Assembly: GCA_964016885.1 (NCBI GenBank)
Contig: OZ024746.1
Location: 45,198,001 to 45,262,000, forward strand
Length of the DNA: 64,000 nucleotides
DNA from: Eledone cirrhosa
Lineage: Eukaryota
Direction: 5' to 3'
The notes under the pieces were generated by a model that saw only the letters and a program-made list of their open reading frames with translations, was not told the origin of the DNA and did no database searches. Below are positions 22,387-57,073 of the stretch, in pieces. The position numbers and the translations under genes were made by a program. Numbering within the stretch: position 1 is the first letter of the stretch; each line of letters opens with the position of its first letter.

Positions 22387-25300
22387 TTTCTTTATTAACC
22401 ACAAGGGTTTACATAAAGTAGACATTAAAGACAGTACAGGACAATATAGGGCGGTACAAATGGGCATTTCTGCGTGTAAAAAAACAAGAAACAGAGGATC
22501 TAATAATAGAACAATCTAAAAATTCCCCAATAGGGGGTAGACTTCGGAGGGACATTGGTGGAGAAAGCCCATTAAAAAGCCACAGTGACCCTGACCACCA
22601 GGGCAAGTGCCCTCTCCCAGTTTTCCACCTTTAATTTACAGACACATACTCAGAGTAGGCCCATTCACTCGGGCCATTCTTGCCTCTCTCACCCATCTTT
22701 CAACAAAATGCTGGGAAGAGAGCATTTCCTTTATACCCTGATTTGCCTTTTCAAATGAAATTTGAAAAAGTTAATCAGGGCATCACCGAAGAGGTAAGTG
22801 CTCGTCTTCAGCCCTTTCAAACGTGTCCAACATACTATCTCCTTCGCCATGACAGATAAATACTGCCTGCCATTCCCGGCAATCCTCACGATGGACTCAG
22901 CTGATAGCTGGATCCGTCCTACACGTGACAGCAGGTGTTCGACATAAACCCACAAGTCAGCAATGCTCGGACACTGGACGAGTGCGTGCAAGACGGTTTC
23001 GTCGCCCTGTGCGCATCTCGGACATGCCCGGCTGACGGCAGCTCCATGTCTGTAGAGTTTATCCCGAACTGGCAAAGCTCCTAGGTAGAATTGCCAGGCC
23101 AGAGATTTCTGGAAGTTGTCCATAGGCCCCGGCCCGCAAATCCTTCCGAAGAGATTGGCTAGTTGATTTTCGTCGACGCCTAGAGTTTCTCCAAGTACGT
23201 CGTAGCACTTCCCCTCCACTAATCCTCTATAGAACGCCAAGGTAGAGTTTCCACCGATCACATTGCCCGATTGGTCGAGGTCTGTGAGGGCCTGAAGACA
23301 TTCCAGTCTCCAAGCGCTCACTCTCGGGCTTCGCTTGACTCAGGACTGCAGCTCCGTCAAGGAGACGAGCTGGGGAAAGACGTGTCTAGCAAACGGCGAC
23401 CACACCTGATCACTGTGGAGAAAGAAGTTGAGATGTCGTAGCCTGAGCGCGTGTTTATGCATCATCATCCACGGCATACCCAGCCCTCCACGTAGCGGGT
23501 GTTGACAGCAGATGGACCGCCTGACCATCGGAGCGCGTCCCGTCCACAAAAACCGAAAGAGCAAACGCTCCAGCGCAGTCAGGCGTGGTTTAGGACAAGG
23601 TACGACGGTCAGGCGGTAGTAGATGACGGACGCGATGTACGCGTTAGCCACCTCCGATCGACCTTTCAAGGATAGCTTCCTCTCCGCCCATTTCTGGGTG
23701 AGAGAAGCCACCCTGTTCGTCACCTCGTCCCAGTTTTTGTCCGTCTGGAGGTCTGGACCGAACCAGAACCCTAGCAATTTAACCGCTTCGTCCGTCCAGC
23801 GCCCGACAACGCTGTTGGACGGCATGGACCTGCCTCTCCAGGTGCCGAGCTGCAGGCCCCCTGACTTTTCCTGGTTGATCATTGCTCCTGTCACCACTTC
23901 GTATTCTCTTAGTGTAGTGTTGATCGCCTCGATGTGTTTGGCGTTCGACACCTCTACGGTGACATCGTCCGCATATGCTGACACGGATCTTCCGCATCCT
24001 AGTTCGCACGGGACCACCCTCAACGTCTCCAGTTTGTGGAGTAATGGCTCGAGAGTCAATATGTACAAGAGTGACGATAGGGGACATCCTTGGCGGACTG
24101 AACGCATGATGTTGAACGGTTCCGAAAGGTGACCGTTCACTCTCACCACGGAGCAGATGTCGCTGTGCATGGCAGCGATCCAGCCTCTGAAGACGGGCCC
24201 AAAGCCAGCCGCCCTCAGGACTGCCGCTAGGTAACGATGGTCGACCCTATCGAACGCATTCGACTGTTCTAAATTGATCAAGGACCCACCCGTGCCAGGT
24301 TCCCTAGCTACCCTCTCTACGATGTATCGCATGAGGTGGAGGTTGTCGTGGATGGATCTGTCGGGACCACCAACGACAAGCGCCAACCTCTTTCCTCCCA
24401 CCTTGGCCAAGATCTTGAACTCTATGTTTAGCAGAGTTATGGGCCTAAAATTATCTATGTTATCCCCTTTGTTCGGGTCCTTTCTCAGCTGCGCCACAAC
24501 TCCTCGGCTCACAGAGCTGGGAATTCTCCCGTTCTGTTGCCAGTTGCAGTAGACGTCCGCCAAAAGGCCTCCGAATAAGTCTGGCATCTGTACGTAAAGT
24601 TCATATGGCAAACCATCCAACCAAGCGATTTACCCCTTGTGCAGCCAGTCATTGCCTCCCTTAATTCAGCGGCTTTTATCGGCTTTTCGCAACACTCCGC
24701 CTCAATAGCCGAAAGCCGCGGCAGTCCGTCGAGGTAAACACTAAGGTCCATCCCTTGATCCGGCCCGTCGCTGCCCCCGAACAACTGTGTGAAGTGTCGC
24801 TGAAAAGCTTCACACATTTTCCCTGGATCGAGTAGCATGCGCCCGTCGTGGTCCACCAAAGATCGGATCGTGGCTTTGTTGCCACGACGCGCCTCGGCCA
24901 CTCAGGCCCAATGAACGGCTTTCCTCCCCTCGTGTCTGAGAGCACGCACCATAGCTCTGACAACGCAGCCTTCGTGCTTTGCATTGAAGAATTGTTCAAG
25001 GGCCAATTTCGCCGCAAGTACGTCGGTCGCGATGCCTTTGCTAAGCGCCTCGTTTAATTTTCTAACTAATTCTCCCTCTGCTCTATTTTTCTCTATTGAT
25101 AAAGACTTACTAAACCTAATGAACTCTATTCTGGTCTCGCCGATGGCCACTACATCTATGTTTAGTGACCTGAGGTCGTTGAGCAGGTGGCCCTGCTTCC
25201 ATGACGACCCCAAGCCACGCGCGTTTATGCTGCCTATTCTGAGTGAGGTCATGGAGTGGAAAAGATGTGAAAGACCAATTATCTTACTTCTCGTAGAGGA

Positions 25301-27429
25301 AGGATGGTTTGTCCATCCTTTTCACTGCTTGTGGCCTCCTCCGGAAAGATGTCCTTATAAATCCTCCTGGATAGTGTTTGTCGGAAGTCTCCGATGTCTT
25401 TGGGGAATTTTTGTTTTAGTATCGTGTACATTTTCTGTGTGATGCGAGTGATTTGTATGTGAACTTTTGGCTTGTTGTGTAGTCTTTTTTGTGATTCTGG
25501 TGTTGTGTTGGATGTAGTGTAATAATTGGTTGTTGTTCAAATTTAATTGTTTCTACTTTAGGCACAATGCTGTGTAGTGTGTAACGTTTTGGTTGTTTTG
25601 TTTTGTTTGCGTTTGTTGTGGGTTTGTTTCTGTTTCGCTTTCTGGTGACTTTTGTGGTGTAGGTGATGGTGGTTTTGGGGTTAATGATGGTGATGGTGTT
25701 GGTGTTTGTGGTGATGGGGTTGGTGATGCTGCTGTGGATGGTGGCATATCTGTCCTGACTTTTTTGTTTGATAGTTTATTTGTTTTCCTCTGTATTTTGT
25801 TTTTGGAGAGGAAGGAAGATAATTTTTTCTTTTTTGATTTCTTTTTTTCTTTTTTCCTGATACCATTTCCCACACCTCGTCGTCACAATCTGTCTCCAGT
25901 TGTGGCCAGGGAGTGGAAAATCCTCCACAGGCGTTGGTTTTGGTTGTGGCGTGGTGGATGGTGTCGGCGCTGGTGCTAGTTCTGGCGCGTTGGGTGGTGG
26001 TGGTGTTGGTTTTGCTACTGTTGCTGGGGTTGTTGCTGTTACAGTTGCTTCTGTTGTTGCTGCTACAGTTGTTGCTGCCATCTCTGATGCTGGTGGTGTT
26101 GATGGTTGAGTCACTGGGGTGGGTAAGAGAGGTGGCCTCAACCTTTTAGCCTGAGAGCAGAAAGGCCTTAGGTGGGTTCCTTCACAACAAACGACACACC
26201 TATGCCTTCTGCCATCGACGATTACGGTGAGGTGGCTGCCGTCAGTGAAGTCTATTACCTCTGGGATCTCCTCAATGCTTTTTTGGTCCGCTTGGATCAG
26301 GACTTCCATCCCAGATCCGGACCAGTTCTCCTGCTTTTCTTTCGCTATTTCGATTATCTTCGTGTTGGCTTCGATGCCGGCGAGGACGGCCGCTATTAGT
26401 CAGGGAATTTCGATGGCCGGTGGAACGTGGGTGACCCTGATCTTTACGAGTCTCTGGCCACAATAGCTTGGGACGAGTGTGAAGTCGTCACTTCTTAATG
26501 GGGCTATGGAGTGTTCTCTAGCCTCCTGTGGTGTTTCAAAGAACACGTCCACGGTTCCATATTTCTGCCCACGTCTGATGTTGCGTTTTTTTGCCCACAC
26601 ATGTCCCAAAGATTTTGGATTTGGGACTCGGATGCCCGTCCACTCGGCGCGATTTTATGTTAATTGTTCGATAAGCCACGGTGCATAGGCGCCGATGCTC
26701 TATTTTATTAGGTGTGGGGGGGGCTGACCCTGTACCCATCTTTCTTTACCATTTTTTTGGCTTCTTCTAATTCCTCCCGAGTTACCTGAAATGCTTCGCA
26801 CAGTTTTGCTACTCTGGCAAAATTGAGGGTGGTTTTCTTAATTTCATTGTTGCTGTTGTTGTTATCGTTATTTTTGCTATTGTTAATTTTAGTTTCAGTT
26901 GTGGTGGTGGTGGCGTCAGTGGTGTTCGGTGTGGAAGAGTTTATTTTGGTTGAATTCATTTCGATATCACGAGTTAATCTTTTTTCTTTTGTTACTGCTG
27001 TCGTGGTGGGGGGGGGGGGTTGTCGCGGTGGTGGTAGTGGTGGCGGCTTTAACACCTGCAGTCATTGGTAATTGCGGGAAATGAATGTCTGCTTGAGACA
27101 AATTTAAAATATTGCTACTGCTTATAATTTTTGTGTTGGCAAACGTAGTAATATTTACAATGGCGGTGTCGGTGTGAGGTGTTAGTTTGTGAGGAGGACT
27201 GACTCTGCGTCGTCCATGATTTTTCAAAGAAAAATGTTTGTTTGATAATTATAAAAGTTTAAATTTTGGACTCAAGGCCCCAATGTTTTTGGGTGTCCTT
27301 TTCAGATAACAATGTATGTGCACTTATATACAGTTAACAATAAAAATTTCCATAAATGCCATTTTAAACAACTGAAAATAACAAACCTTTGCGGAGCTCA
27401 CAATGATACGATTTACTACGTAGGTCGCC
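22385..27429 (-). mobile_element. Tx1/L1-clade non-LTR retrotransposon copy A (5' module type 1), degenerate, endonuclease deleted
   Basis: Frameshifted ORF1 and ORF2 pieces (RT with QGCPLS, YADD; CCHC). (AAT)n at both ends (22334-22384, 27430-27482). In-frame 744-bp APE deletion at 25128-25132. Confidence 0.95.
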
Positions 27430-31797: not shown

Positions 31798-32050
31798 TAT
31801 AATAATGTTTTCTTTATTAACCACAAGGGTTCACATAAAGTAGACATTAAGGACAGTACAGGACAATACAGGACGGTACAAATGGGCATTTCTGCGTGTA
31901 AAAAAAACAGAGGTTGAAATAAAATAACAAAGAAAAATTCCCCAATAGGGGGGAGACTTCCAAGGGACATTTGTGGAGAAAGCCCATTAAAAGACCACAG
32001 TGGCCCTGACCACCAAGGCAAGTGCCCTCTCCCAGTTTTCCACCTTTAAT

Positions 32051-35000
32051 TTACAGACACATACTCAGAGAAGGCCCATTCATTCGGGCCATACTTGCTT
32101 CTCTCACCCATCTTTCAACAAAATGCTGGGAAGAGAGCACTTCCCTCTCTACCCTGATTTTCCTTTTCAAATGAAATTTGAAAAAGTTAATCAGGGCATC
32201 ACCGAAGAGGTAAGTGCTCGTCTTCAGCCCTTTCAAACGTGTCCACCATACTATCTCTTTCGCCATGGCCACCAGACAGATAAAAACTGCCTGCCCTTCC
32301 AGGCTAAAGGAAGGGGGCGGGGCAATCCTCACGATGGACTCAGCTGATAGCCGGATCCGTCCTACACGTGACAGCAGGTGTTCGACATAAACCCACAAGT
32401 CAGCAATGATCGGACACTGGACGAGTGCGTGCAGGACGGTTTCGTCGCCCTGCGCGCATCTCGGACATGCCCGGCTGACAGCACCTCCATGCCTGTAGAG
32501 TTTATCCCGAACTGGCAAAGCTCCTCGGTAGCACTGCCAGGCCAGGGATTTCTGGAAGTTGTCCATAGGCCCCGGCCCGAAAGTCCTTCCGAAGAGACTG
32601 GCTAGTTGATTTTCGTCGACGCCTAGAGTTTCTCCAAGTACGTCGTCGCTCTTCCCCTCCACTAATCCCCTATAGAACGCCAAGGTGGAGTTTCCACCGA
32701 TCACATTGCCCGATTGGTCGAGGGCTGTGAGCGCCTGAAGACATTCCAGTCTCCAAGCGCTCCCTCTCGGTCTTCGCTTGACCCAGGACTGCAGCTCCGT
32801 CAAGGAGACGAGCTGAGGAAAAACGCGTCTTGCAAACGGCGACCACACCTGATCACCGTCGAGGAAGAGGTGGAGATGTCGTAGCCTGAGCGCGTGTCTG
32901 CGCATCATTAGCCACGGCATGCCCAGCCCTCCACGTAGCGGGTGTTGACAGCAGATGGACCGCCTGACCATCGGAGCGCGTCCCTTCCACAAGAAGCGAA
33001 AGAGCAAACGCTCCAGCGCAGTCAGGCGGGGCTTAGGACAAGGTACGACGGTCAGGCGGTAGTAGATGACGGATGCGATGTACGCATTCGCCACCTCCGC
33101 TCGACCTTTCAGGGATAGCTTCCTCTCGGCCCATTTCTGGGTGAGATAAGCCACCCTGCTCGTCACCTCGTCCCAGTTTTTGTCCGTCTGGAGGTCTGGA
33201 CCGAACCAGACCCCTAGCAATTTAACCGGTCCGTCCGTCCAGCGCCCGACGACGCTGTTGGACGGCATGGACCTGCCTCTCCAGGTGCCGAGCTGCAGGC
33301 CCACTGACTTTTCCTGGTTGATCATTGCTCCTGTCACCGCTTCGTATTCTCTTAGTGTAGTACCGATCGCCTCGATGTGTTTGGCGTTCGACACCACTAC
33401 GGTGACATCGTTGGCATATGCTGACACGGATCTTCCGCATCTTAGTTCGCGCGGGACCCCCCTCAACGTCTCCAGTTTGTGCAGTAATGGCTCGAGAGTC
33501 AATACGTACAATAGGGACGAGAGGGGACATCCTTGGCGGACCGAGCGCATGATGTTGAACGGTTCCGAAAGGTGACCGTTCACTCTCACTACAGAGCAGA
33601 TGTCGCTGTGCATGGCAGCGATCCAGCCTCTGAAGACGGGCCCAAAGCCAGCCGCCCTCAGGACTGCCGCTAGGTAACGATGGTCGACCCTATCGAAGGC
33701 TTTCGACTGATCTAAATTGATCAAAGACCCACCCGTGCCAGGTTCCCTAGCTACCCTCTCTACGATGTATCGCATGAGGTGGAGGTTGTCGTGGATGGAT
33801 CTGTCGGGAATGGCGCATGTCTGCGCCTCTCCCACCAGACCACCAACGACAAGCGCCAACCTCTTTGCTAGCACCTTGGCCAAAATCTTAAACTCTGTGT
33901 TTAGCAGAGTTATGGGCCTAAAATTATCTATGGTATCCCCCTTGTTCGGATCCTTTCTCAGCAGCGCCACCGCTCCTCGGCTCACAGAGCTGGGAATTCT
34001 CCCGTTCTGTTGCCAGTTGCAGTAGACGTCCGCCAAGAGGCCTCCGAACAAGTTTGGCATTTGTACGTAAAGTTCATAGGGGAGACCATCCAAACCAGGC
34101 GATTTACCCCTTGTGCAACTAGTCATTGCATCCCGTACTTCAGCGGTTGTTATCGGCTTTTCGCAACACTCCGCCTCAGTGGCCGAAAGCCGCGGCAGTC
34201 CGTCGAGGTAGACACTAAAGTCCATCCCTCTACCCGGCCCCCCGCTGCCCCCGAACAGCTGAGCGAAGTGTCGCTGAAAAGCTTCACACATTTGCCCGGG
34301 ATCGAGTAGCATGCGCCCGTCGTGGTCCACCAAAGACCGGATCGTGGCTTTGTTGCCACGACGCGCCTCCGCCACTCGGGCCCATTGAACGGCTTTCGTC
34401 CCCTCGTGTCTGAGAGCACGCACCCTAGCTCTGACAACGCAGCCTTCGTGCTTTGCATTGAAGAATTGGTCAAGAGCCAATTTCGCCGCAAGTACGTCGG
34501 TCGCGATGCCTTTGCTAAGCGCCTCATCTAATTTTCTAACTAATTCTCCCTCTACTCTATTTTTCTCTATTGCTAAAGTCTTACTAAACCTAATGGACTC
34601 TATTCTAATTGCTCTTTTCAGAGCAAACCACCACTTGTTGTTGACGATGCCCCCCGTCAACGCCCGCTTAACTAGTTCGCTAATCCGGTCTCTGTAGGCC
34701 TTGCGCGCTGGTAAGGACGCGTTTAGCTTCCAATAGCCGGGTCCTCGTCTATGAAGCCTATCTAAGTCAAGCACACAGATCACGAATTTGTGGTCCGTGT
34801 AGCTGACTATCTTGAATTGTGGACAGCCTATGCTAGACCTATCTATTTCCCTACAAAATACTCTATCTAGATATGATCTGGATGACCCTATGCGATTTGT
34901 CCAAGTCCACATTGGTACATTCGGGAAATCCATTCGGTACCTGTCAGACAGTTCAAAACGTCTGAGCAGGTTGGTGAGACTCTTGCACCCTCCTTCCCTA

Positions 35001-35470
35001 TCCACTAATCCCACACAATCCCAGCGTGCATCTAAGATCCCGTTCCAGTCGCCCACTAACACTAAAGAGCGGGACGTTCCAAGAAAGGTCTCCAGACGCC
35101 GGAAGAAATCAGGCCGCCCTGCTCCTGTCGGGGCATAGACGGCCACTAACCTGAAAGCTTTCCCGTCTCCGCTGGTCACGTCCAGCACCACCAACTTACC
35201 TTCTGGGTCCAGGAAGATGGCCCGTATGGCAAGATCCAAACCTCTCCGAAAAAGCACAGCAACTCCTCCCCCCGATCCCGGACGGCTGGGAGATGCGTAC
35301 ACATCGTAGCCGCCGAAGATCGGTGCGAAAGCCTGTGCTTCGGAGATTCTGGTCTCGCTGATGGCCACTACATCCATGTTTAGTGACCTGAGGTCGTTGA
35401 GCAGGTGGCCCTGCTTCCATGACGACCCCAAGCCACGCGCATTTATGCTGCCTATTCTGAGTGAGGTCAT
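32051..35470 (-). CDS. ORF2 polyprotein: APE endonuclease + reverse transcriptase + C-terminal CCHC (1139 aa); catalytic YADD mutated to YAND
   Basis: SINARGL, ISETR, VYAP, GDWN, SYLDR, TDH (APE). KSPGLDG, FRPITLLN, DQSKAFDRV, QGCPLS, YAND (RT). CPRC...H...C. Confidence 0.95.
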   Translation of the reverse strand: MTSLRIGSINARGLGSSWKQGHLLNDLRSLNMDVVAISETRISEAQAFAPIFGGYDVYASPSRPGSGGGVAVLFRRGLDLAIRAIFLDPEGKLVVLDVTSGDGKAFRLVAVYAPTGAGRPDFFRRLETFLGTSRSLVLVGDWNGILDARWDCVGLVDREGGCKSLTNLLRRFELSDRYRMDFPNVPMWTWTNRIGSSRSYLDRVFCREIDRSSIGCPQFKIVSYTDHKFVICVLDLDRLHRRGPGYWKLNASLPARKAYRDRISELVKRALTGGIVNNKWWFALKRAIRIESIRFSKTLAIEKNRVEGELVRKLDEALSKGIATDVLAAKLALDQFFNAKHEGCVVRARVRALRHEGTKAVQWARVAEARRGNKATIRSLVDHDGRMLLDPGQMCEAFQRHFAQLFGGSGGPGRGMDFSVYLDGLPRLSATEAECCEKPITTAEVRDAMTSCTRGKSPGLDGLPYELYVQMPNLFGGLLADVYCNWQQNGRIPSSVSRGAVALLRKDPNKGDTIDNFRPITLLNTEFKILAKVLAKRLALVVGGLVGEAQTCAIPDRSIHDNLHLMRYIVERVAREPGTGGSLINLDQSKAFDRVDHRYLAAVLRAAGFGPVFRGWIAAMHSDICSVVRVNGHLSEPFNIMRSVRQGCPLSSLLYVLTLEPLLHKLETLRGVPRELRCGRSVSAYANDVTVVVSNAKHIEAIGTTLREYEAVTGAMINQEKSVGLQLGTWRGRSMPSNSVVGRWTDGPVKLLGVWFGPDLQTDKNWDEVTSRVAYLTQKWAERKLSLKGRAEVANAYIASVIYYRLTVVPCPKPRLTALERLLFRFLWKGRAPMVRRSICCQHPLRGGLGMPWLMMRRHALRLRHLHLFLDGDQVWSPFARRVFPQLVSLTELQSWVKRRPRGSAWRLECLQALTALDQSGNVIGGNSTLAFYRGLVEGKSDDVLGETLGVDENQLASLFGRTFGPGPMDNFQKSLAWQCYRGALPVRDKLYRHGGAVSRACPRCAQGDETVLHALVQCPIIADLWVYVEHLLSRVGRIRLSAESIVRIAPPPSFSLEGQAVFICLVAMAKEIVWWTRLKGLKTSTYLFGDALINFFKFHLKRKIRVEREVLSSQHFVERWVREASMARMNGPSLSMCL

Positions 35471-35504
35471 GTTGAAAAGGAGTGGAAAAGATGGGAAAGA
35501 CCAC

Positions 35505-37475
35505 TTACCTTACTTCTCGTAGGAGAAGGACGGCTTTTCCATCCTTTTCACTGCTTGTGGCCTCCTCAGGAAGGATGTCCTTATAAATCCTCCTGGAGAG
35601 TGCTTGTCGGAAGTCTCCGATGTCTTTGGGGAATTTTTGTTTTAGTGTCATGTACGTTTTCTGTGTGATGCGAGTGATTTGTATGTGTGGAGGTGGTGTG
35701 AATTTTGGGGTTGTTGTGTAGTCTTTTTCTGTGATGCTGGTGTTGTTCAAATTTAATGCTGTGTAGTGTGTATCGTTTTGGTTGTTTTGTTTTGTTTGCG
35801 TTTGTTGTGGGTTTGTTTCTGTTTCGTATTTTGGTGACTTTTGTGGTGTAGGTGATGGTGGTGCTGGGGATAATGATGGTGATGGTGTTGGTGTTTGGGT
35901 TGATGGGGTTGGTGATGCTGGTGTGGATGGTGGCATATCTGTCCTAACTTTTTTGTTTCTTAGTTTATTTGTTTCCCTCTGTATTTTGTTTTTGGAGGGG
36001 GAAGGAAGAGAATTTTTTTCTTTTTTGGTTTCTTTTTTTTTTTCCGGATATCGTTTCCCACTCCTCGTCGTCACAATCTGTCTCCAGTTGTGATAGGCCG
36101 GGGAGTGGAAAATCCTCCACAGCCGTTAGTTTTGGTTGTGGTGTGGTGGATGGTGTAGGCGCTGGTGCTTGTTCTGAAGCGTTGGGTGGTGGTGGTGTTG
36201 GTTTTGCTGGTGGTGGTAGTGGTGTTGGTTTTGCTACTGTTGCTGGGGTTGTTGCTGTTATAGTTGCTTCTGTTGTTGCTGCTACAGTTGTTGCTGGCAT
36301 CCCTGCTACTGGTGGTGTTGATGGTTGTGTCACTGGGGTGGGTAGGAGAGGTGGCCTCAACCTTTTAGCCTGAGGGCAGAAAGCCCTTAGGTGGGTTCCT
36401 TCACCACAAACGACACATCTAGGTGTTCTGCCCTCGACAATTACCGTGAGGTGGCTGCCGTCAGTGAGGTCTATTACCTCTGGGATCTCCTCAATGCTTT
36501 TTTGGTCCGCTTGGATCAGGAGCTCCATCCCAGATCCGGACCAGTTTTCCTGCTTTTCTTTTGCTATTGTTATTATCTTCGTGTTGGCCTCGATGCCGGC
36601 GATGACAGCCGCTATTAGCCAGGGAATTTCGATGGCCGGTGGAACGTGGGTCACCCTGATCTTTACGAGTCTCTGGCCACAATAGCTTGGGACGAGTGTG
36701 AAGTCGTCACTTTTTAATGGGGCCATGGAGTGTTCTCTAGCCTCCTCTGGTGTTTCAAAGAACACATCCACGGTTCCATACTTTTGCCCACGTCTGATGT
36801 GGGTTTTTCTTGCCCACACATGTCCCAAAGCTTTTTGGATTTGGGACTCGGATGCCCGTTCCACTCGGCGCGATTTTACATTTATTGTTCTATACGACAC
36901 GGTGCACAGGCGCCGATGCTCCATTTTATTAGGTGGGGGGGGGGGGGGGGGTGAGGCTGACCCTGTACCCATCTTTCTTTACCATTTGTTTGGCATTTTC
37001 TAAATCTTCTTGAGTTACCGTGAACGCTTCGAATTGTTTTGCTACGATGGCGAAACTGAGGGTCGGTTTTATAATGTCATTGTTGTTGTTGTTGCTATCG
37101 TTAATATTAATTTTATTTTCAGTTGTGCTGGTGGTGACGTCAGTTGTCTTTGGTGGGGAAGAGTCCATTTTGCTTGATTTCATTTCGACGTCACGAGTTA
37201 ATTTATTTTTTTCTTCTTTTGTTTCTGTTGTCGCGGTGGTGGTGGTGGTGGTGGTGGTTGTCGCGGTGGTGGTGGTGGTGGAGGGTTTAACACCTGCAGT
37301 CATTGGTAATGGCGGGAAATGAATGTCTGCCTGAGACAAATTTAAAATATTGCTACTGCTTATATTTTTTTTTTGTGTTGGCAAACGTAGTAACATTTAC
37401 AATGGTGGTGTCGGTGTGAGGTGTTATTTTGTGAGGAAGGCTTTCAGCTGCTTCGTGCAGAGGGGAATTAGCCAT
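35505..37475 (-). pseudogene. ORF1 type 1 (gag-like, RRM-like region + single CCHC knuckle, Pro/Thr-rich), frameshifted, partly at homopolymer runs
   Basis: Pieces 36929-37396, 35965-36972 and 35505-36074. Knuckle CVVCGEGTHLRAFC. One shift lies at the G-run 36935-36951. Confidence 0.85.
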
Positions 37476-37684
37476 TTTTTTTCAAAGAAATTTTTGGATA
37501 ATAATAAAAGTTAAAATTTTGGGCACAAGGCCCCAATCTTTTTGGGTGTCCTTTTCGGAAAACAATGTATGTGTGCTTATAAACAGTTTACAATAAAATT
37601 TTCCATAAATGGCAATTTTTAAACAAACGGAAATAACAAACCTTTGCGGAGCTCACGATAATACGATTTCCTACGTAGGTCGCC

Positions 37685-37729
<45 letters not shown>

Positions 37730-40315: not shown

Positions 40316-40378
<63 letters not shown>
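40234..40378 (+). repeat. (ACT)n microsatellite, 3' flank of Tx1 copy D
   Basis: Directly visible. Confidence 0.97.
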
Positions 40379-40383
40379 TAAAT

Positions 40384-42914: not shown

Positions 42915-42949
<35 letters not shown>

Positions 42950-43211
42950 TTTCTTTATTAACCACAAGGGTTTACATAAAGTAGACATTAAGGACAGTGC
43001 AGGACAATGCAGGACGGTACAAATGGGCATTTCTGCGTGTAAAAAAACAAAAACAGAGGATGTAACAAAAATAACAATGAAAATAACAATGAAAAAATTC
43101 CCCAATAGGGGGGGAGACTTCGGAGGGACATTTGTGGAGAAAGCCCAGTAAAAAGCCACAATGACCCTGACCACCAAGGCAAGTGCCCTCTCCCAGTTTT
43201 CCACCTTTAGT

Positions 43212-46200
43212 TTACAGATATATACTCAGAGTCGGCCCATTCACTCGGGTCATTCTTGCTTCTCTCACCCATCTTTCAACAAAATGCTGGGAAGAGAGCA
43301 CTTCCTTCTCTACTCTGATTTTCCTTTTCAAATGAAATTTGAAAAAGTCAATCAGAGCATCACCGAAGAGGTAAGTGCTCGTCTTCAGCCCTTTCAAACG
43401 TGTCCACCATACTATCTCTTTCGCCATGGCCACCAGACAGATAAAAACTGCCTGCCCTTCCCGGCTAAAGGAGGAGGGCGGGGCAATCCTCACGATAGAC
43501 TCAGATGATAGCTGGATCCGTCCCAAACGCGACAGCAGGTGTTCGACATAAACCCACAAGTCAGCAATTTTCGGACACTGGACGAGTGCGTGCAGGACGG
43601 TTTCGTCGCCCTGCGCGCATCTCGGACATGCCCGGCTGACGGCACCTCCATGCCTGTAGAGTTTATCCCGAACTGGCAAGGCTCCTCGGTAGCACTGCCA
43701 GGCCAGAGATTTCTGGAAGTTGTCCATAGGCCCTGGCCCGAAAGTTCTTCCGAAGAGATTGGCTAGTTGATTTTCGTCGACGCCTAGAGTTTCCCCAAGT
43801 ACGTCGTCGCTCTTCCCCTCCACTAATCCTCTATAGAACGCCGAGGTGGAGTTTCCACCGATCACATTGCCCGATTGGTCGAGGGCTGTGAGCGCCTGAA
43901 GACATTCCAGTCTCCAGGCGCTCCCTCTCGGTCTTCGCTTGACCCAGGACTGCAGCTCCGTCAAGGAAACGAGCTGGGGAAAAACGCGTCTAGCAAACGG
44001 CGACCACACCTGATCACCGTCGAGGAAGAGGTGGAGATGTCGTAGCCTGAGCGCGTGCCTGCGCATCATCAGCCACGGCATGCCCAGCCCTCCACGTAGC
44101 GGGTGTTGACAACAGATGGACCGCCTGACCATCGGAGCACGTCCCTTCCACAAAAAGCGAAAGAGCAAACGCTCCAGCGCAGTCAGGCGAGGCTTAGGAC
44201 AAGGTACGACGGTTAGGCGGTAGCAGATGACAGACGCGATGTACGCGTTAGCCACCTCCGCTCTACCTTTCAGGGATAGCTTCCTCTCCGCCCATTTCTG
44301 GGTGAGAGAAGCCACCCTGCTCGTCACCTCGTCCCAGTTTTTGTCCGTCTGGAGGTCCGGACCGAACCAGACCCCTAGCAATTTAACCGGTCCGTCCGTC
44401 CAGCGCCCGACGACGCTGTTGGACGGCATGGACCTGCCTCTCCAGGTGCCGAGCTGCAGGCCCACTGACTTTTCCTGGTTGATCATTGCTCCTGTCACCG
44501 CTTCGTATTCTCTTAGTGTAGTGCCGATCGCCTCGATGTGTTTGGCGTTCGACACCACTACGGTGACATCGTCCGCATATGCTGACACGGATCTTCCGCA
44601 TCCTAGTTCGCGCGGGACTCCCCTCAACGTCTCCAGTTTGTGCAGTAATGGCTCGAGAGTCAATACGTACAAGAGGGACGAGAGGGGACATCCTTGGCGG
44701 ACCGAGCGCATGATGTTGAACGGTTCCGACAGGTGACCGTTCACTCTCACCATAGAGCAGATGTCGCTGTGCATGGCAGCGATCCAGCCTCTGAAGACGG
44801 GCCCAAAGCCAGCCGCCCTCAGGACTGCCGCTAGGTAACGATGGTCGACCCTATCGAAAGCTTTCGACTGATCTAAATTGATCAAGGACCCACCCGTGCC
44901 AGGTTCCCTAGCTACCCTCTCTACGATGTATCGCATGAGGTGGAGGTTGTCGTGGATGGATCTGTCGGGAATGGCGCATGTCTGCGCCTCTCCCACCAGA
45001 CCACCAACGACAAGCGCCAACCTCTTTGCTAGCACCTTGGCCAAAATCTTAAACTCTGTGTTTAGCAGAGTTATGGGCCGGAAATTGTCTATGTTATCCC
45101 CCTTGTTCGGATCCTTTCTCAGCAGTGCCACCGCTCCTCGGCTCACAGAACTGGGAATTCTCCCGTTCTGTTGCCAGTTGCAGTAGACGTCCGCCAAGAG
45201 GCCTCCGAACAAGTCTGGCATCTGTACGTAAAGTTCATAGGGCAGACCATCCAAACCAGGCGATTTACCCCTTGTGCAGCCAGTCATTGCCTCCCGTACT
45301 TCAGCGGCTGTTATCGGCTTTTCGCAACACCTCGCCTCAGTGGCCGAGAGCCGCGGCAGTCCGTCGAGGTAGACACTAAAGTCCATCCCTCTACCCGGCC
45401 CCCCGCTGCCCCCGAACAGCTGAGCGAAGTGTCGCTGAAAAGCTTCACACATTTGCCCGGGATCGAGTAGCATGCGCCCGTCGTGGTCCACCAAAGACCG
45501 GATCGTGGCTTTGTTGCCACGACGCGCCTCCGCCACTCGGGCCCATTGAACGGCTTTCGTCCCCTCGTGTCTGAGAGCACGCACCCTAGCTCTGACAACG
45601 CAGCCTTCGTGCTTTGCATTGAAGAATTGGTCAAGGGCCAATTTCGCCGCAAGCACGTCGGTCGCAATGCCTTTGCTAAGCGCCTCGTCTAATTTTCTCT
45701 ATTGCTAAAGCCTTACTAAACCTAATCGATTCTATTCTAATCGCTCTTTTCAGAGCAGACCACCACTTGTTGTTGACGATGGCCCCCGTCAACACCCGCT
45801 TAACTAGTTCGCTAATCCGGTCTCTGTAGGCCTTGCGCGCTGGTAAGGACGCGTTTAGCTTCCAGTAGCCGGGTCCTCGTCTATGAAGCCTATCTAAGTC
45901 AAGCACACAGGTCACGAATTTGTGGTCCGTGTAGCTGACTATCTTGAATTGTGGACAGCCTATGCTAGACCTATCTATTTCCCTACAAAATACTCTATCT
46001 AGATATGATCTGGATGACCCTATGCGGTTTGTCCAAGTCCACATTGGTACATTCGGGAAATCCAATCGGTACCTGTCAGACAGTTCAAAACGCCTGAGCA
46101 GGTTGGTGAGGCTCTTGCACCCTCCACCCCTATCCGCTAATCCCACACAGTCCCAGCGTGCATCTAAGATCCCGTTCCAGTCGCCCACTAACACTAAAGA

Positions 46201-46602
46201 GCGGGACGTTCCAAGAAAGGTCTCCAGACGCCGGAAGAAATCAGGCCGCCCTGCTCCCGTCGGGGCATAGACGGCCACTAGCCTGAAAGCTTGCCCGTCT
46301 CCGCTGGTCACGTCCAGCACCACCAGCTTACCCTCTGGGTCCAGGAAGATGGCCCGTATGGCGATATCCAAACCTCTCCGAAAAAGCACAGCAACTCCTC
46401 CACCCGATCCAGGACGGCTGGGAGATGCGTACACATCGTAGCCGCCGAAGATCGGTGCGAAGGCCCGTGCTTCGGAGATTCTGGTCTCGCTGATGGCCAC
46501 TACATCTATGTTTAGTGACCTGAGGTCGTTGAGCAGGTGACCCTGCTTCCATGACGACCCCAAGCCACGCGCATTTATGCTGCCTATTCTGAGTGAGGTC
46601 AT
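43212..46602 (-). pseudogene. ORF2 (APE-RT-CCHC) split by a 29-bp deletion at ~45692; YADD intact
   Basis: ORFs 45676-46602 and 43212-45656 align with copy C ORF2. Confidence 0.92.
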
Positions 46603-46637
46603 GTTTAAAATAGAGTGGAAAAGATGGGAAAGACCAC

Positions 46638-48734
46638 TTACCGTACTTTTGGTAGAGGAGGGATGGTTTTTACATCCCTTTTCACTTGATCGTCTGGTGA
46701 AGGGACCGTTGAATCGTCCCTTCGGCTGGTCGTCGGCTCTTCTAAGAGAATGTCTGAATATACTCTTCGATTGATGGTTCCTCCTAGGTCCCTGAAATCA
46801 CCAACTGCGTTGGGGAATTTCGTTTTAATGTTTGTGTATTGTTTCTGTGCTATTTTTAGCAGTCTTATGTTAGTTGGCGTTTTGATTGGTGCTGGTATTA
46901 TGTAGTCCTGTTGTGAAATGTCTGTGTGTTCAATTATGTAAGTCATTAGTTTCTTGTTGTGTGTGTTTATTGCCGTGCATTTGTTTTTCTGGGGGTGGGG
47001 TGTGGTTCTGCTATTTTCTTGTCGTTGTTGCTGGGTGTGTGTGTTTTGTTGTTGTGTTTGCGATGTTGGTGCTTGTGGTGGTGGTGTTGAAGGTGTTGTT
47101 GGCGGTGGGGTTGTCGCCGGTGGTGATGGTGGTGCTGGTGTGGGTGGTGATGGTGTTGGTGGTGTTGCTGCTGTGGGTCTCTTTGCAGTAGACTTTACCC
47201 TTTTCTCATTTCTTTCCTCCCTTTTCAAAGGCGACGATGCGCTGCTTCTGCGTTTGTGCCTTCTTGCAACCTTTTGCCACCCCTCTCCCACCTCACACTC
47301 CATGTCTGATTCTGTGAGGTCGGGGAGGGGTACCAGCTCCACTCTTTCACTTGTTGTTGTTGGTGATGTTTGCACTGGAGTCTCTGTTGCAGCTGCATTT
47401 GGTATTGCTGTTGTTGTTGTTACTATTTCCACTGCTGCTGCTGTTTTTGATTTCCGTGGAGTGGGTATGGGTGCCACGGACCTATCGTTCCTGGTTGCCG
47501 CTTGTCCTGCTGCTTGTAGCCGTGGAGCCGGATTCGGAAGGAGGGGGGTTTTCTCCTTTCTCAGGGTCTTCTCGTTGCAGAAGGCCCTGAGGTGAGTCTT
47601 CGATCCACAGCGAAAGCATTTCGGGCATTTGCCCTCAACACTTATGGGCAGTTGAGTGCCGTTATCGAAGTCTATCACATCCGGGATAGCTTCGATGCAC
47701 TCCTGGTTGGTTTGGATTAGCATCTCAATGGAGGAGCCGCCCCAATCTTCTCTTACTTTTTTCTGTACTTGCAGTACAGTTGTTTTGTCCTCGATTCCGA
47801 CGAGGACAGACGCGGCCAGCCAAGAAGGGGTCATTCCGGGGGGGACGTGGGTCAGTTTGACCCTCACAATTTTTTGCCCACAGTAGGAGGGCACCAACAC
47901 CATTTCCTCGCTCCTTAGGGTCACTACTGATTGGGCCTTTGCCTCCTGGGGTGTGGCAAAAAGTACGTCTACGGTGGCATATTTTTTGCCTCGGGTGATG
48001 TGCGTTTTCCGCTGCCACACAGACCCCAGGGCTTTTTGTATTTGGGCCTCTGTGGCTCTTTCCACCCTACGGGATTTTGTACTTACTGTACGGTACGTGA
48101 CCGTACAGTGCTCTTGGGTTTCGAAACATGTTTCCGCTGCCTTGCAGATTGCTCGGTGTCCGTTCTTTGTCACCATCTTCTTCGCTTCCTCTAATTCCTC
48201 ATTTGTTATGAGGATTGTTTCCAAGTTTTTCGCAATACCTGCAAATGAGATTGGTTTTTCTCTGCTGTTGTTGTTGTCGTCAGAGCTGCTGGTACTTTTG
48301 TTGTTGCTGCAGGTGCTACGACTACTGCCTCCGCCGCTGTTGCTGTGGTTGTTGTTGGTGTTGCTGCTGCTAATGCTGTTGTTGTTTATGCTGCTGGTGA
48401 TGCTGTTGCGGCTGCTACTGTTGTTTTCATTGTCACTGTTGCAGTTGTTATTACGGCTGCTACTGCTATTATTCCTGACGTCTGACGAATGAACTGGGTT
48501 TTCGTATTTCCCGCACACCTGTTTCGTCGCTGTCGTCGTCGTCGTGGAGAAACCTTGCACGCTTTGCACGAGACTTTTCTTTTCTTTCGTCACTTGCGAA
48601 AGAGAAGGGAGGGAGAGAGACACATTTAAAGAAGGGAGGGAGAGAGACAATCTTCTCTCTGCTGTAGTGATGATTGAGGAAGAAGAAGACGGAATGAGTG
48701 GGAGTGACGTATGAAATTTCTTTTTCGTAGCCAT
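46638..48734 (-). CDS. ORF1 type 2, intact 698-aa gag-like nucleic-acid-binding protein
   Basis: Ser/Asn-rich N-terminus, RRM-like region, knuckle CFRCGSKTHLRAFC, EGWQKVARRHKRR motif, Pro/Thr-rich linker. Lies directly upstream of ORF2. Confidence 0.9.
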   Translation of the reverse strand: MATKKKFHTSLPLIPSSSSSIITTAERRLSLSLPSLNVSLSLPSLSQVTKEKKSLVQSVQGFSTTTTTATKQVCGKYENPVHSSDVRNNSSSSRNNNCNSDNENNSSSRNSITSSINNNSISSSNTNNNHSNSGGGSSRSTCSNNKSTSSSDDNNNSREKPISFAGIAKNLETILITNEELEEAKKMVTKNGHRAICKAAETCFETQEHCTVTYRTVSTKSRRVERATEAQIQKALGSVWQRKTHITRGKKYATVDVLFATPQEAKAQSVVTLRSEEMVLVPSYCGQKIVRVKLTHVPPGMTPSWLAASVLVGIEDKTTVLQVQKKVREDWGGSSIEMLIQTNQECIEAIPDVIDFDNGTQLPISVEGKCPKCFRCGSKTHLRAFCNEKTLRKEKTPLLPNPAPRLQAAGQAATRNDRSVAPIPTPRKSKTAAAVEIVTTTTAIPNAAATETPVQTSPTTTSERVELVPLPDLTESDMECEVGEGWQKVARRHKRRSSASSPLKREERNEKRVKSTAKRPTAATPPTPSPPTPAPPSPPATTPPPTTPSTPPPQAPTSQTQQQNTHTQQQRQENSRTTPHPQKNKCTAINTHNKKLMTYIIEHTDISQQDYIIPAPIKTPTNIRLLKIAQKQYTNIKTKFPNAVGDFRDLGGTINRRVYSDILLEEPTTSRRDDSTVPSPDDQVKRDVKTIPPLPKVR

Positions 48735-48973
48735 GTTGTTTTTTGTTTAAAATGAAATTTTGGGTACAAAACCCCAATAACTGGTTATTTAACCCCGAAG
48801 AGCCAAATAACGGACAGAAAGACCCCTCTCACGAGGAGGAGGGTGTCTTTATCAACAATTTGGTTCAAGTTTTAAACAATTTACAATTGTTTTAACGGTT
48901 AAAAATTACTATACCTTACAGAGCCGAGCCTCCGTCAACCATGGCATTCAATAATAATAATAATAATAATAAT

Positions 48974-51900
48974 GATTTCACAAGGGGTTACATAAAGTAG
49001 ACATTAAGGACAGTACAGGACAATGCAGAACGGTACAAATGGGCATTTCTGCGTGTAAAAATACAGAGGATGTAATAAAAAAAATAACAATGAAAAATTC
49101 ACCAATAAGGGGGGAGACTTCCGAGGGACATTTATGGAGAAAGCCCATTAAAAGGCCACAGTGACCCTGACCACAAGGGCAAGTGCCCACTCCCAGTTTT
49201 CCACCTTTAATTTACAGAGAGATACTCAGAGTAGGCCCATTCACTCGGGCCATACTTGCTTCTCTCACCCATCTTTCAACAAAATGCTGGGAAGAGAGCA
49301 CATCCCTCTCTACCCTGATTTACCTTTTAAAATGAAATTTGAAAAAGTTAATCAGGGCATCACCGAAGAGGTAAGTGCTCGTCTTCCGCCCTTTCAAACG
49401 TGTCCACCATACTATCTCTTTCGCCATGGCCACCAGACAGATAAAAACTGCCTGCCCTTCCCGGCTAAAGGAAGAGGGCGGGGCAATCCTCACGATGGAC
49501 TCAGCTGAGAGCCGGATCCGTCCTACACGTGACAGAAGTGTTCGACATAAACCCACAAGTCAGCAATGCTCGGACACTCTACGAGTGCCTGCAGGACGGT
49601 TTCGTCGCCCTGTGCGATTCTCCATGCCTGTAGAGTTTATCCCGAACTGGCAAAGCTCCTCGGTAGCACTGCCAGGCCAGAGATTTCTGGAAGTTGTCCA
49701 TAGGCCCCGGCCCGAAAGTCCTTCCGAAGAGATTGGCTAGTTGATTTTCGTCGACTCCTACAGTTTCTCCAAGTACGTCATCGCTCTTCCCCTCCACTAA
49801 TCCTCTATAGAACGCCAAGGTGGAGTTTCCACCGATCATATTGCCCGATTGGTCGAGGGCTGTGAGCGCCTGAAGACATTCCAGTCTCCAAGCGCTCCCT
49901 CTCGGTCTTCGCTTGACCCAGGACTGCAGCTCTGTCAAGGAGATGAGCTGGGGAAAGACGTGTCTAGCAAACGGCGACCACACCTGATCACCGTCGAGGA
50001 AGAGGTGGAGATGTTGTAGCCTTAGCGCGAGTCTGCGCATCATCAACCACGGCATGCCCAGCCCTCCACGTAGAGAGTGTTGACAACAGATGGACCGCCT
50101 GACCATCGGAGCGCGTCCCTTCCACAAAAAGGGAAAGAAAAACGTTCCAGCGCAGTCAGGCAGGGCTTAGGACATGGTACGACGGTCAGGCGGTAGTAGA
50201 TGACGGATGCGATGTACGCGTTGGCCACCTCCGTTCGACCATTCAGGGATAGCTTCCTCTCCGCCCATTTCTGGGTGAGAGAAGCCACCCTGTTCGTCAC
50301 CTCGTCCCAGTTTTTGTCCGTCTGGAGGTCCGGACCGAACCAGACCCCTAGCAATTTAACCGCTCCGCCCGTCCAGCGCCCGACAACGCTGTTGGACCGC
50401 ATGGACCTGCCTCTCCAGGTGCCGAGCTGCAGGCCTACTGACTTTTCCTGGTTGATCATTGCTCCTGTCACCACTTCGTATTCTCTTAGTGTAGTGCCGA
50501 TCGCCTCGATGTGTTTGGCGTTCGACACCACTACGGTGACATCGTCCGCATATACTGACACGAATGTTCCGCATCCTAGTTCGCCCGGGACCCGCCTCAA
50601 CGTCTCCAGTTTGTGCAGTAATGGCTCGAGAGTCAATACGTACAAGAGAGACGAAAGGGGACATCCTTGGCGGACCGAGCGCATGATGTTGAACGGTTCC
50701 GAAAGGTGACCGTTGACTCACATCACAGAGCAGATGTCGCTGTGCATGGCAGCGATCCAGCCTCTGAAGACGGGCCCAAAGACAGCCGCCCACAGGACTG
50801 CCGCTAGGTAACGATGGTCGACCCTATCGAAAACTTTCGACTGATCTAAATTGATCAAGGACCCACCCGTGCCAGGATCCCTAGCTACCCTCTCTACGAT
50901 GTATCGCATGAGGTGAAGTTTGTCGTGGATTGATCTGACGGGAATTGCGCATCTCTCCACCTCTCCCACCAGACCACCAACGACAAGCGCCGACCTCTTT
51001 GCTAGCACCTTGGCCAAAATCTTGAACTCTGTGTTTAGCAGAGTTATGGGCCTGAAATTATCTATGTTATCCCTTTGTTCGGATCCTTTCTCAGCAGCGC
51101 CACAGCTCCTCGGCTTACAGAGCTGGAAATTCTCCCGTTCTGTTGCCAGTTGCAGTAGACGTCCGCCAAGAGGCCTCCGAACAAGTCTGGCATCTGTACG
51201 TAAAGTTCATAGGGGAGACCATCCAAACCAGGCGATTTACCCTTTGTGCAGCCAGTCATTGCCTCCCGTATTTTAGCGGCTGTTATCGGCTTTTCGCAAA
51301 ACTCCGCCTCAGTGACCGAGAGCCGCGGCCCGCCGATTCCCCCGAACAGCTGTGCGAAGTGTCGCTGAAAAGCTTCACAGATTTTCCCGGGATAGAGAAG
51401 CATGCGCCCCTCGTGGTCCACCAAAGAACGTATCTTGGCTTTGTTGCCACGACGCGCCTCCGCCACTCAGGCCCATTGAACGGCTTTCATCAAGTCGTGT
51501 CTGAGAGCACGCACCCTAGCTCTGACAACGCAGCCTTCGTGCTTTGCATTGAAGAATTGGTCAAGGGCTAATTTCGCCGCAAGAACGTTGGTCGCGATGC
51601 CTTTGCTAAGCGCCTCGTCTAATTTTCTAACTAATTCTCCCTCTGCTCTATTTGTCTCTATTGCTAAAGCCTTACTAAACCTAATGGACTCTATTCTAAT
51701 TGCTCTTTTCAGAGCAAACAGTCACTTGTTGTTGACGCTGGCCCCCGTCAACGCCCGCTTAACTGGTTCGCTAATCCGGTCTCTGTAGGCCTTGCGCGCT
51801 GGTAAGGACGCGTTTAGCTTCCAGTAGCCGGGTCCGCGTCTACGAAGCCTATCTAAGTCAAGCACACAGATCACGAATTTGTGGTCCGTGTAGCTGACTA

Positions 51901-54713: not shown

Positions 54714-54756
<43 letters not shown>

Positions 54757-56883: not shown

Positions 56884-56989
56884 GTCTCGGGTTCAATCGG
56901 GGGTAACCAAAATAATATATTAAACTTGATATATATGTATGTGTCTATGTATATATAAGTATATACATATGGTCATACATATGTGTATG

Positions 56990-57023
<34 letters not shown>

Positions 57024-57073
57024 TATATCAAGTTTAATATATTATTTTGGTTACCCCCGATTGAACCCGGGAC
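56884..57073. mobile_element. Small foldback/MITE-like inverted repeat (~60-bp arms, (TA)-rich centre)
   Basis: gtctcgggttcaatcgggggtaaccaaaataatatattaaacttg... is mirrored at 57013-57073. Confidence 0.7.

Follow-up and report, generated by a model that had tools for sequence, protein, structure and literature searches.

The window analysed here is a 64,000-nucleotide stretch of Eledone cirrhosa DNA that is eukaryotic, AT-rich and rich in microsatellites. From 22 kb onward it carries six copies of a LINE (A, C, D, E, F and G), all on the minus strand. The ORF1/ORF2 junction could be read in four of these, A, C, E and F, hereafter the window family. The main features of copy C and the other junctions are the following.

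31805..37685, minus strand: copy C, an L1/Tx1-type LINE with (ATT)n at each flank
35505..36978, minus strand: ORF1 of copy C, with a CCHC zinc knuckle, one frameshift near 35965-36125 and the stop TAA at 35505-35507
35471..35504, minus strand: inter-ORF spacer, 34 nt (35 nt in E), pyrimidine-rich, containing the 3' arm of a local hairpin
32051..35470, minus strand: ORF2 of copy C, 1139 aa, APE endonuclease, reverse transcriptase (RT) and zinc finger
31813..31818, minus strand: AATAAA poly(A) signal of C, lying 3687 nt past the ORF1 stop and 196 nt past the 3' end of predicted helix I
46602..46686, minus strand: junction of type 2 copy E, with donor CG/GTAAGT and a 35-nt spacer
52561..52643, minus strand: junction of copy F
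25252..25326, minus strand: junction of decayed copy A, with a mutated donor, a spacer short by 8 nt and a helix I of just -20.4 kcal/mol

Judged from its translated ORFs, copy C is an ordinary L1/Tx1-type LINE, having both the ORF2 domain set and a separate upstream ORF1 with a nucleic-acid-binding motif. The Pfam families Exo_endo_phos, RVT_1 and zf-RVT each exceeded the cut-off in ORF2, and the best PDB match to this protein was human L1 ORF2p (E 7e-52, residues 5-855). The zinc knuckle of ORF1, read from the translation, has the spacing C-X2-C-X4-H-X4-C; a Pfam search with ORF1 gave no family above the cut-off. Searches for ORF1 homologues with residues 210-420 (longer proteins) and 200-410 found no relatives, which is weak evidence. 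The window gave no matches to Rfam, and none were found in the viral contigs and plasmids searched. Eight of 12 supplementary files of PMC9115989 were scanned for two motifs and neither was present; other cephalopod repeat libraries could contain further families.

The Tx1- and L1-clade LINEs Kibi, Koshi, Keno and human L1 share with the window element the two ORFs and an ORF2 comprising an APE endonuclease, RT and zinc finger. Kibi and Koshi are described as sitting in (TC)n and (TTC)n microsatellites (PMC4494074); the window copies also lie in a microsatellite, but one of (ATT)n. Copies A, C, E and F have (ATT)n on both sides, and the tail of the element is itself ATT, so that target duplications are indistinguishable. 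A short piece of a protein named from Octopus sinensis is 64% identical to the window LINE, and L1-Tx1 families of O. vulgaris are reported to have been active recently (PMC13282606).

Several other arrangements were seen in the window. At 40353-54756, copies D, E and F form a head-to-tail series, the 5' end of each abutting the (ATT)n tail of the next copy. Copy D joins a type 2 5' part to an ORF2 3' part with about 3.4 kb gone, and copy A is missing about 740 nt of the endonuclease. Plus-strand ORFs at 58586-60853 belong to another RT-bearing element, with further pieces near 28.6-30.5 kb and 61-62.7 kb. An imperfect palindrome of 190 bp with a self-match of 88% occupies 56884-57073.

The junction between the two ORFs had drawn attention in an earlier note because of a long hairpin spanning the ORF1 stop, proposed as a conserved cis element for ORF2 translation. 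One arm of this hairpin lies in the spacer and the other in ORF1.

35534..35552, minus strand: 5' arm of the local hairpin, the purine-rich last codons of ORF1; an alternative local partner for the spacer, competitive in copy C only

The geometry described for copy C was confirmed. On the minus strand the 19-nt arms pair at 17 of 19 positions (16 Watson-Crick pairs and one G-U pair, with two A-C mismatches), flank the ORF1 UAA and end 10 nt upstream of the ORF2 AUG at 35470. The segment folded at a z score of -2.95, the opposite strand folded at -4.24, and neighbouring windows in C folded equally well (z -3.1, -2.8 and -3.9). Purines dominate the 5' arm and pyrimidines the spacer, and significance was therefore assessed with pattern-kept shuffles, in which each purine can move only to another purine position and each pyrimidine only to another pyrimidine position. 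When the spacer was included in full, the local fold of C preferred a shifted register of -29.2 kcal/mol, which was equalled by 21 of 1000 such shuffles.

The same stem had been said to be retained in E, A and F, and this did not hold. Copy E folded at z -1.49 without the stem and copy F at z -0.21, while pattern-kept shuffles matched the local pairing 349 (E), 259 (F) and 77 (A) times per 1000. The inner CUUCUC/GAGAAG hairpin is present in C and private to it, since site 35524 differs in A, E and F. In sequencing run X1, this site differed from C in 114,450 of 114,615 summed contig depth, and the last pair of the stem (35534) differed in 74,749 of 77,142; the runs compared were X1, X10, X15 and X22 out of 24, with X22 spanning 4 of 30 bins and X15 consisting of 28 records. 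The 3' arm was found four times in the window where none was expected, identical in C, E and F and with two changes in A. This arm being near-invariant, the changes in the 5' arm are uncompensated, and examination for covariation gave no compensatory change in the local stem. Furthermore, antisense local pairing was stronger than sense in all four copies, and the hairpin was absent from 17 junction variants of a related LINE family, family a (z -0.9 to +1.15).

The 5' arm had also been taken as the exact boundary of similarity between type 1 and type 2 copies. Identity between C and E does fall in this region, but stepwise, from 92-100% below 35500 to 80-84% at 35501-35550 and 52-60% just above 35550, and the ORF1s of the two types are still homologous, with protein identities of 53% and 39%.

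The possibility that the local hairpin drives termination-reinitiation or internal entry at the ORF2 AUG was considered in light of these results. The stem is stable in C, the opening 10 nt of the 5' arm are preserved in copy E though in another ORF1 frame, and a local hairpin could form ahead of 3' UTR transcription. However, the stem is non-significant and uncompensated in the other copies, pairs better in antisense, is no better than adjacent windows of C and is lacking in family a. Moreover, the TURBS motif UGGGA, as defined in PMC5972666, was absent from the 130 nt before the AUG of A, C, E and F. A role of this kind for the hairpin is decidedly improbable, and the structure is at most a transient alternative fold that would precede transcription of the 3' UTR. 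The part of the proposal that stands is that the junction appears to be cis-acting, structure-forming and under nucleotide-level constraint, and that it marks what moves with ORF2 across ORF1 types. The structure assigned to it was wrong: the local stem is not conserved in E and F and is absent from a family 42% identical in ORF2, and the best partner of the spacer lies 3.4 kb downstream.

Frameshifting or readthrough at the ORF1 stop was also evaluated and was rejected because the frame from ORF1 to ORF2 varies (C and F versus E) and spacer length varies, with spacer-length variants present in the sequencing runs.

The distant partner of the spacer is at the end of ORF2 and the start of the 3' UTR, where two helices, I and II, are predicted.

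35481..35512, minus strand: helix I 5' strand (donor and spacer), predicted
32014..32044, minus strand: helix I 3' strand, predicted; in the first ~40 nt of the 3' UTR, with a donor-complementary stretch
35450..35462, minus strand: helix II core 5' strand, predicted; ORF2 codons 3-7, weaker pairing continuing to 35431
32063..32075, minus strand: helix II core 3' strand, predicted; final ORF2 codons, weaker pairing continuing to 32090
43175..43250, minus strand: distant partner in copy E, covering the end of ORF2 and the beginning of the 3' UTR; helix I of -40.7 kcal/mol
49175..49250, minus strand: long-range partner in copy F, helix I of -35.8 kcal/mol

Helix I of copy C has a predicted energy of -43.6 kcal/mol over 29 bp. 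It was the top site in 5.9 kb, 12 kcal ahead of the runner-up, and was reached by none of 1000 pattern-kept shuffles. In copies E and F helix I was likewise the best site in its own element, with 0 of 1000 shuffles each, and in decayed copy A it was matched by 73 of 1000. When the spacer was scanned across the whole element, the best partner was directly after the ORF2 stop in C and E; in copy F, a G-rich site in ORF2 outcompeted the 3' UTR for the 24-nt arm alone. The 3' UTR of copy G, which is 73% identical, was predicted to pair with the junction of C at -32.4 kcal/mol. The predicted arrangement places the ORF2 AUG and the ORF2 stop opposite each other between helices I and II.

Minimum-energy folds of whole 3.8-3.9 kb RNAs formed the helix in C and in a second related family, family b, and lacked it in the single family-a unit tried (one of three folds). 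In two-piece ensembles of C, E and F, which omit the cost of closing a 3.4-kb loop, the spacer paired long-range (19-20 of 24 nt) and not locally. The long-range preference in C is due to the donor segment, which alone tips the balance over the rivalling local stem: without it, the long-range energy was -30.7 kcal/mol as compared with -29.2 kcal/mol for the local fold. Within the window family there were no compensatory changes in the long-range helix. The 3' UTR arm was invariant in 35 of 40 columns and other 3' UTR blocks in 31-34 of 40, so that the arm is barely more conserved, and the 3' UTR start can fold locally too.

A scan of GTDB contigs for relatives gave 80 loci, mostly head-to-tail LINE arrays in animal-like DNA binned into one bacterial assembly. 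This assembly, labelled Arenicella (G001 contigs C3-C19; loci L081-L144 and L161-L199), contains several hundred kb of animal-like DNA with intact L1/Tx1-type LINE arrays of 6.4-6.8 kb period, the array copies within one contig often being identical; the animal-like sequence is likely host contamination. Families a and b both come from this one assembly and, together with the window family, make three independent families. The ORF2 of family a is 42% identical to that of C, family b is 41% identical to C and 49% to family a, and silent sites are near saturation, third positions matching at 83 of 260. Family a was represented by 47 units, of which 8 were repeats, leaving 39 distinct; units with a broken ORF2 were excluded from pair counts. 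As distant controls, 24 distinct elements with a whole ORF2 were taken out of 88 loci (L001-L080 and L145-L152). One of these, at L146-L152, is an L1-like element with 24% endonuclease identity in an assembly labelled Endozoicomonas. It is interspersed with U5 snRNA genes (4 Rfam matches in L146), which suggests that it may target U5 arrays. An exact 18-nt match in the 3' UTR (window 31926-31943, starting GGGGAATTTTTC) is common to C and a family-a unit and may be part of an RT recognition signal.

With a 90-nt query from the ORF2 start, about 175 segments of each element were ranked as partners; the segment at the ORF2 end came out on top in C and in all 6 of the family-a representatives, and took second place in family b. 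Controls that kept codons synonymously or kept the purine-pyrimidine pattern matched this result in 0-2 of 300 cases. Among the 24 distant L1-like elements, the ORF2 end ranked first in one, about the level of chance. In the core of helix II, 65 of 72 cells were paired in a single register across the three families, as against 15-45 of 72 in slid registers. Six of the nine core columns had two-sided changes, homologous codons pairing in the same register with different bases. Of the nine pairs in the core, the strands of each family formed 8, 9 and 9 as Watson-Crick pairs with each other, and strands swapped between families formed 4-5. The nine-column core was picked after inspection of the data, and the lineages are too few for a formal covariation test. 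Core column 6 was paired in just 3 of 8 variants. Opposite to the local stem, all 11 of the whole duplexes were more stable on the sense strand than on the antisense, each having 6-10 G-U pairs. Shorter 33-nt tests were less clear-cut: L081 had no match near the ORF2 end, and in family a the best site led the next by only 0.1-4.8 kcal.

Sequence and computation together show the complementarity, its top rank within the element, the sense-strand bias and, across the three families, a shared codon register in which both strands have changed. The predicted long-range helix joining the start of ORF2 to its end very probably exists. In the window family, column 6 of the helix II core (window 35455), the first position of ORF2 codon 6, is an A-C mismatch in each of A, C, E and F. 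A-C mismatch sites in helices are favoured by ADAR, and with a cephalopod host this mismatch would matter.

It was also considered that purine-rich and pyrimidine-rich stretches pair anyway and that both stems are by-products of composition. Chance pairing accounts for most of the local stem. Control queries along C found partners of -36 or -43 kcal/mol in some cases, and one of 39 attained the -43.6 kcal/mol of helix I, with a GC content of 70% versus 42%. However, the long-range helix exceeded both the pattern-kept and the codon-kept controls and occurs in the same place and register in three families, while distant elements rank at chance level. For the long-range helix, this explanation is very improbable.

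Strong splice motifs adjoin the helix in all three families. Those of copy C are as follows.

35503..35511, minus strand: 5' splice-donor (U1-site) motif AAG/GTAAGT, overlapping the ORF1 stop; the first intron base would be 35508
31892..31915, minus strand: candidate 3' splice acceptor in the 3' UTR, a pyrimidine tract and CAG; ranked first among the 391 AG sites of C with an ad hoc score
35457..35459, minus strand: proximal CAG in ORF2 codons 4-5, inside helix II; with the donor it would fuse ORF1 and ORF2 in frame

Donors were scored with a splice-donor consensus, and the ORF1 ends of families a and b were located by protein anchoring, independent of the motif. AAG/GTAAGT was found at the ORF1 stop in C, F and 65 of 65 family-a ORF1 ends, in weaker form in E, and at none of 3 family-b ends. 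The motif occupies a different ORF1 reading frame in family a than in the window family, and its retention therefore points to a constraint on the RNA. A shared 14-mer is the longest exact match between copy C and a unit of the C9 array outside conserved RT coding motifs. In distant elements, donors scoring 8 or more occurred at 0.026 per kb; 2 of 54 had a weaker donor before ORF2, and 0 of 24 had one near the ORF2 stop. The same motif is also present in the endonuclease coding region of C (35199) and F (52290) and not in that of family a. Of 1935 joints in the four sequencing runs, the 15 inspected included none with splice ends at 35508, a result without weight for or against splicing.

Just past the ORF2 stop, a second donor occurs in 61 of 61 units of family a, with variation confined to GTRAGT; family b has it too, and the window family lacks it. 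The AG of the family-a 3' UTR acceptor was kept in 60 of 61 units. The 3' UTR acceptor ranked first in C, E (in a tie), F and family b, first or second in 5 of 5 family-a units and fourth in A; an equally high score was reached in 3 of 24 distant 3' UTRs. A donor after the ORF2 stop with a 3' UTR acceptor forms an intron-like unit retained in the LINE 3' UTR at L081:7000-7300 and its equivalents and at L162:16088-16400. Among 150 ORF1 relatives listed of 242, the C-termini of the 30 inspected that reach at least 280 aa had no spliced-type extension.

These motifs raise the possibility that the helix chiefly controls splicing. A donor at the ORF1 stop would be joined to the 3' UTR acceptor to give an ORF1-only mRNA, in the manner of copia elements, or U1 binding would block premature 3' end formation, and the helix, through bridging or masking of the donor, would determine how much of the RNA is spliced. 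The placement of the first donor despite the differing frame, the rarity of such donors in distant elements, the second donor and the ranking of the acceptor are all in keeping with this, as is the predicted helix itself, which covers the donor fully in the window family and partly in family a. A precedent is described in plant Ty1/copia (PMC5580714). However, family b carries the helix yet no first donor, the ORF2 of C and that of F each contain the same 9-mer once by coding coincidence, and the position of the acceptor, ranked by an ad hoc score, relative to a shared 3' UTR motif is reversed between the window family and family a. Furthermore, no ORF1-only unit was found among 68 ORF1 ends in the arrays. 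Splicing is also reported to inhibit retrotransposition in human L1 (PMC5860796). Control of splicing is somewhat unlikely on its own merits, although it is a close rival to the reading that is preferred below.

A shorter intron of 52-53 nt was also conceivable, one that takes in the spacer and that, when spliced out, would leave the two ORFs fused in frame. The signals follow each other in the proper order (donor, pyrimidine tract, CAG), the frame is open in C, E and F despite the difference in spacer length, and the proximal AG ranks second or third in A, C and F. Opposed to this, ORF1 of family a ends before the donor and without the tract, homologous ORF2 proteins begin with their own Met, both sites are within the predicted helix, and an in-frame outcome has a one-in-three chance. 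Such a fusion is extremely improbable.

The preferred reading is that the junction acts at the level of translation. A role of the junction in ORF2 translation, exerted through the long-range helix, is plausible. The spacer would be one strand of the predicted helix, clasping the start of ORF2 to its end with 3.4 kb looped out. This fold-back would act at the ORF1 stop, drawing the poly(A) tail near, so that the two-ORF RNA escapes nonsense-mediated decay (NMD). In C the predicted distance between the ORF1 stop and the poly(A) signal would shrink from 3687 nt to about 200 nt. A ribosome completing ORF1 would open the helix and thereby give access to the ORF2 AUG. In the window family the helix would also hide the perfect splice-donor motif and so contribute to keeping the full-length RNA unspliced.

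We infer the formation of the helix in cells, its effect on NMD and the gate on ORF2 from the pairing and from two known systems, and the combined proposal, in which the RNA escapes NMD and the ribosome finishing ORF1 opens the gate to ORF2, is held tentatively, at somewhat less than even probability. A role in translation is favoured because an engineered fold-back suppressed NMD and because SART1 needs structure downstream of its stop-start. In human cells, NMD was suppressed by a 26-nt engineered fold-back placed about 50 nt past a premature stop (PMC2689704), and the coupling of SART1 ORF2 is reported to require RNA structure downstream of the stop-start (PMC5972666, PMC3894237). Moreover, family b has the helix without a donor at the ORF1 stop, and a function independent of that donor is therefore indicated. 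Against NMD escape and the ORF2 gate, part of helix I would be melted by a ribosome that terminates on ORF1, whereas 42-50 nt separate the stop from the start of the engineered fold-backs, and the splice motifs that adjoin the helix in all three families favour control of splicing. Since the 3' UTRs of family a (about 700 nt) and family b exceed that of the window family in length, their poly(A) tails would lie less close.

Alternatively, the helix could serve the RNP or template step, certifying RNAs that have both ends of ORF2, or toggling the 3' UTR between a translation fold and a fold read by the RT. Its 3' strand coincides with the beginning of the 3' UTR, a region also able to fold locally, and the pairing is found in all three families regardless of splice motifs and spacer lengths. 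However, 5'-truncated copies without the 5' strand exist in the C9 array, and the middle of the 5' strand falls on the ORF1 stop and the ORF2 AUG, a placement needless for a template signal. This function is improbable.

A broader proposal would combine these elements. An invertebrate LINE clade would regulate itself in the manner of RNA viruses, with a 3.4-kb helix switching splice donors at each stop, a spliced mRNA for ORF1 only and an unspliced, clasped RNA serving for ORF2p and as template, while intron-like units survive retrotransposition. We regard this as speculative and unlikely.

The predicted helix was compared with known systems. Like the structure predicted in the window element, that of SART1 lies at the ORF1/ORF2 boundary; it is linked to ORF2 expression (PMC5972666, PMC3894237). 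SART1 has an overlapping UAAUG, absent from C, E and F, whereas the window family has a spacer of 34-35 nt and a predicted partner 3.4 kb away at the ORF2 end; family b has a TAATG stop-start overlap at its ORF1/ORF2 boundary. In the engineered poly(A) fold-back of Eberle et al. 2008 (PMC2689704), intramolecular pairing likewise brings the 3' end near an upstream stop. That fold-back is described as an artificial 26-nt insert, while the window helix would be natural, begin at the stop and enclose a second ORF. The Ty1/copia element EVD likewise has a conserved strong donor near the end of the structural gene, used there for a short mRNA and for suppressing premature termination (PMC5580714). 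EVD is an LTR element with one polyprotein and demonstrated splicing; the window element is a LINE whose putative donor would be covered by its own 3' UTR.

A full-text literature search, covering few subscription journals or Repbase reports, found no RNA helix joining the start and end of ORF2 in a LINE. In RNA viruses and phage MS2, RNA pairing over kilobase range gates translation of the downstream replicase gene. Long-distance pairing that gates translation is thus already known; what would be new here is the version that joins the start and end of a LINE ORF2. Its partner strands are the two ends of one ORF in a nuclear-transcribed retrotransposon, and the pairing is predicted only.

The initiation of ORF2 is described as unresolved for most elements (PMC3894237, PMC5972666). 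The question addressed by the predicted helix is how a LINE translates ORF2 from a two-ORF RNA, with ORF1p in excess, and avoids decay with kilobases past the stop. The sharp rise in identity between ORF1 types at the ORF1 stop would be explained by the need of the 5' strand to stay complementary to a 3' UTR that moves together with ORF2. With the start and stop of ORF2 held opposite each other by a natural helix, this question would gain a precise, mutable handle, consisting of two short strands with natural compensatory variants. Additionally, the ends of the ORF2 protein would evolve under a constraint imposed by the RNA.
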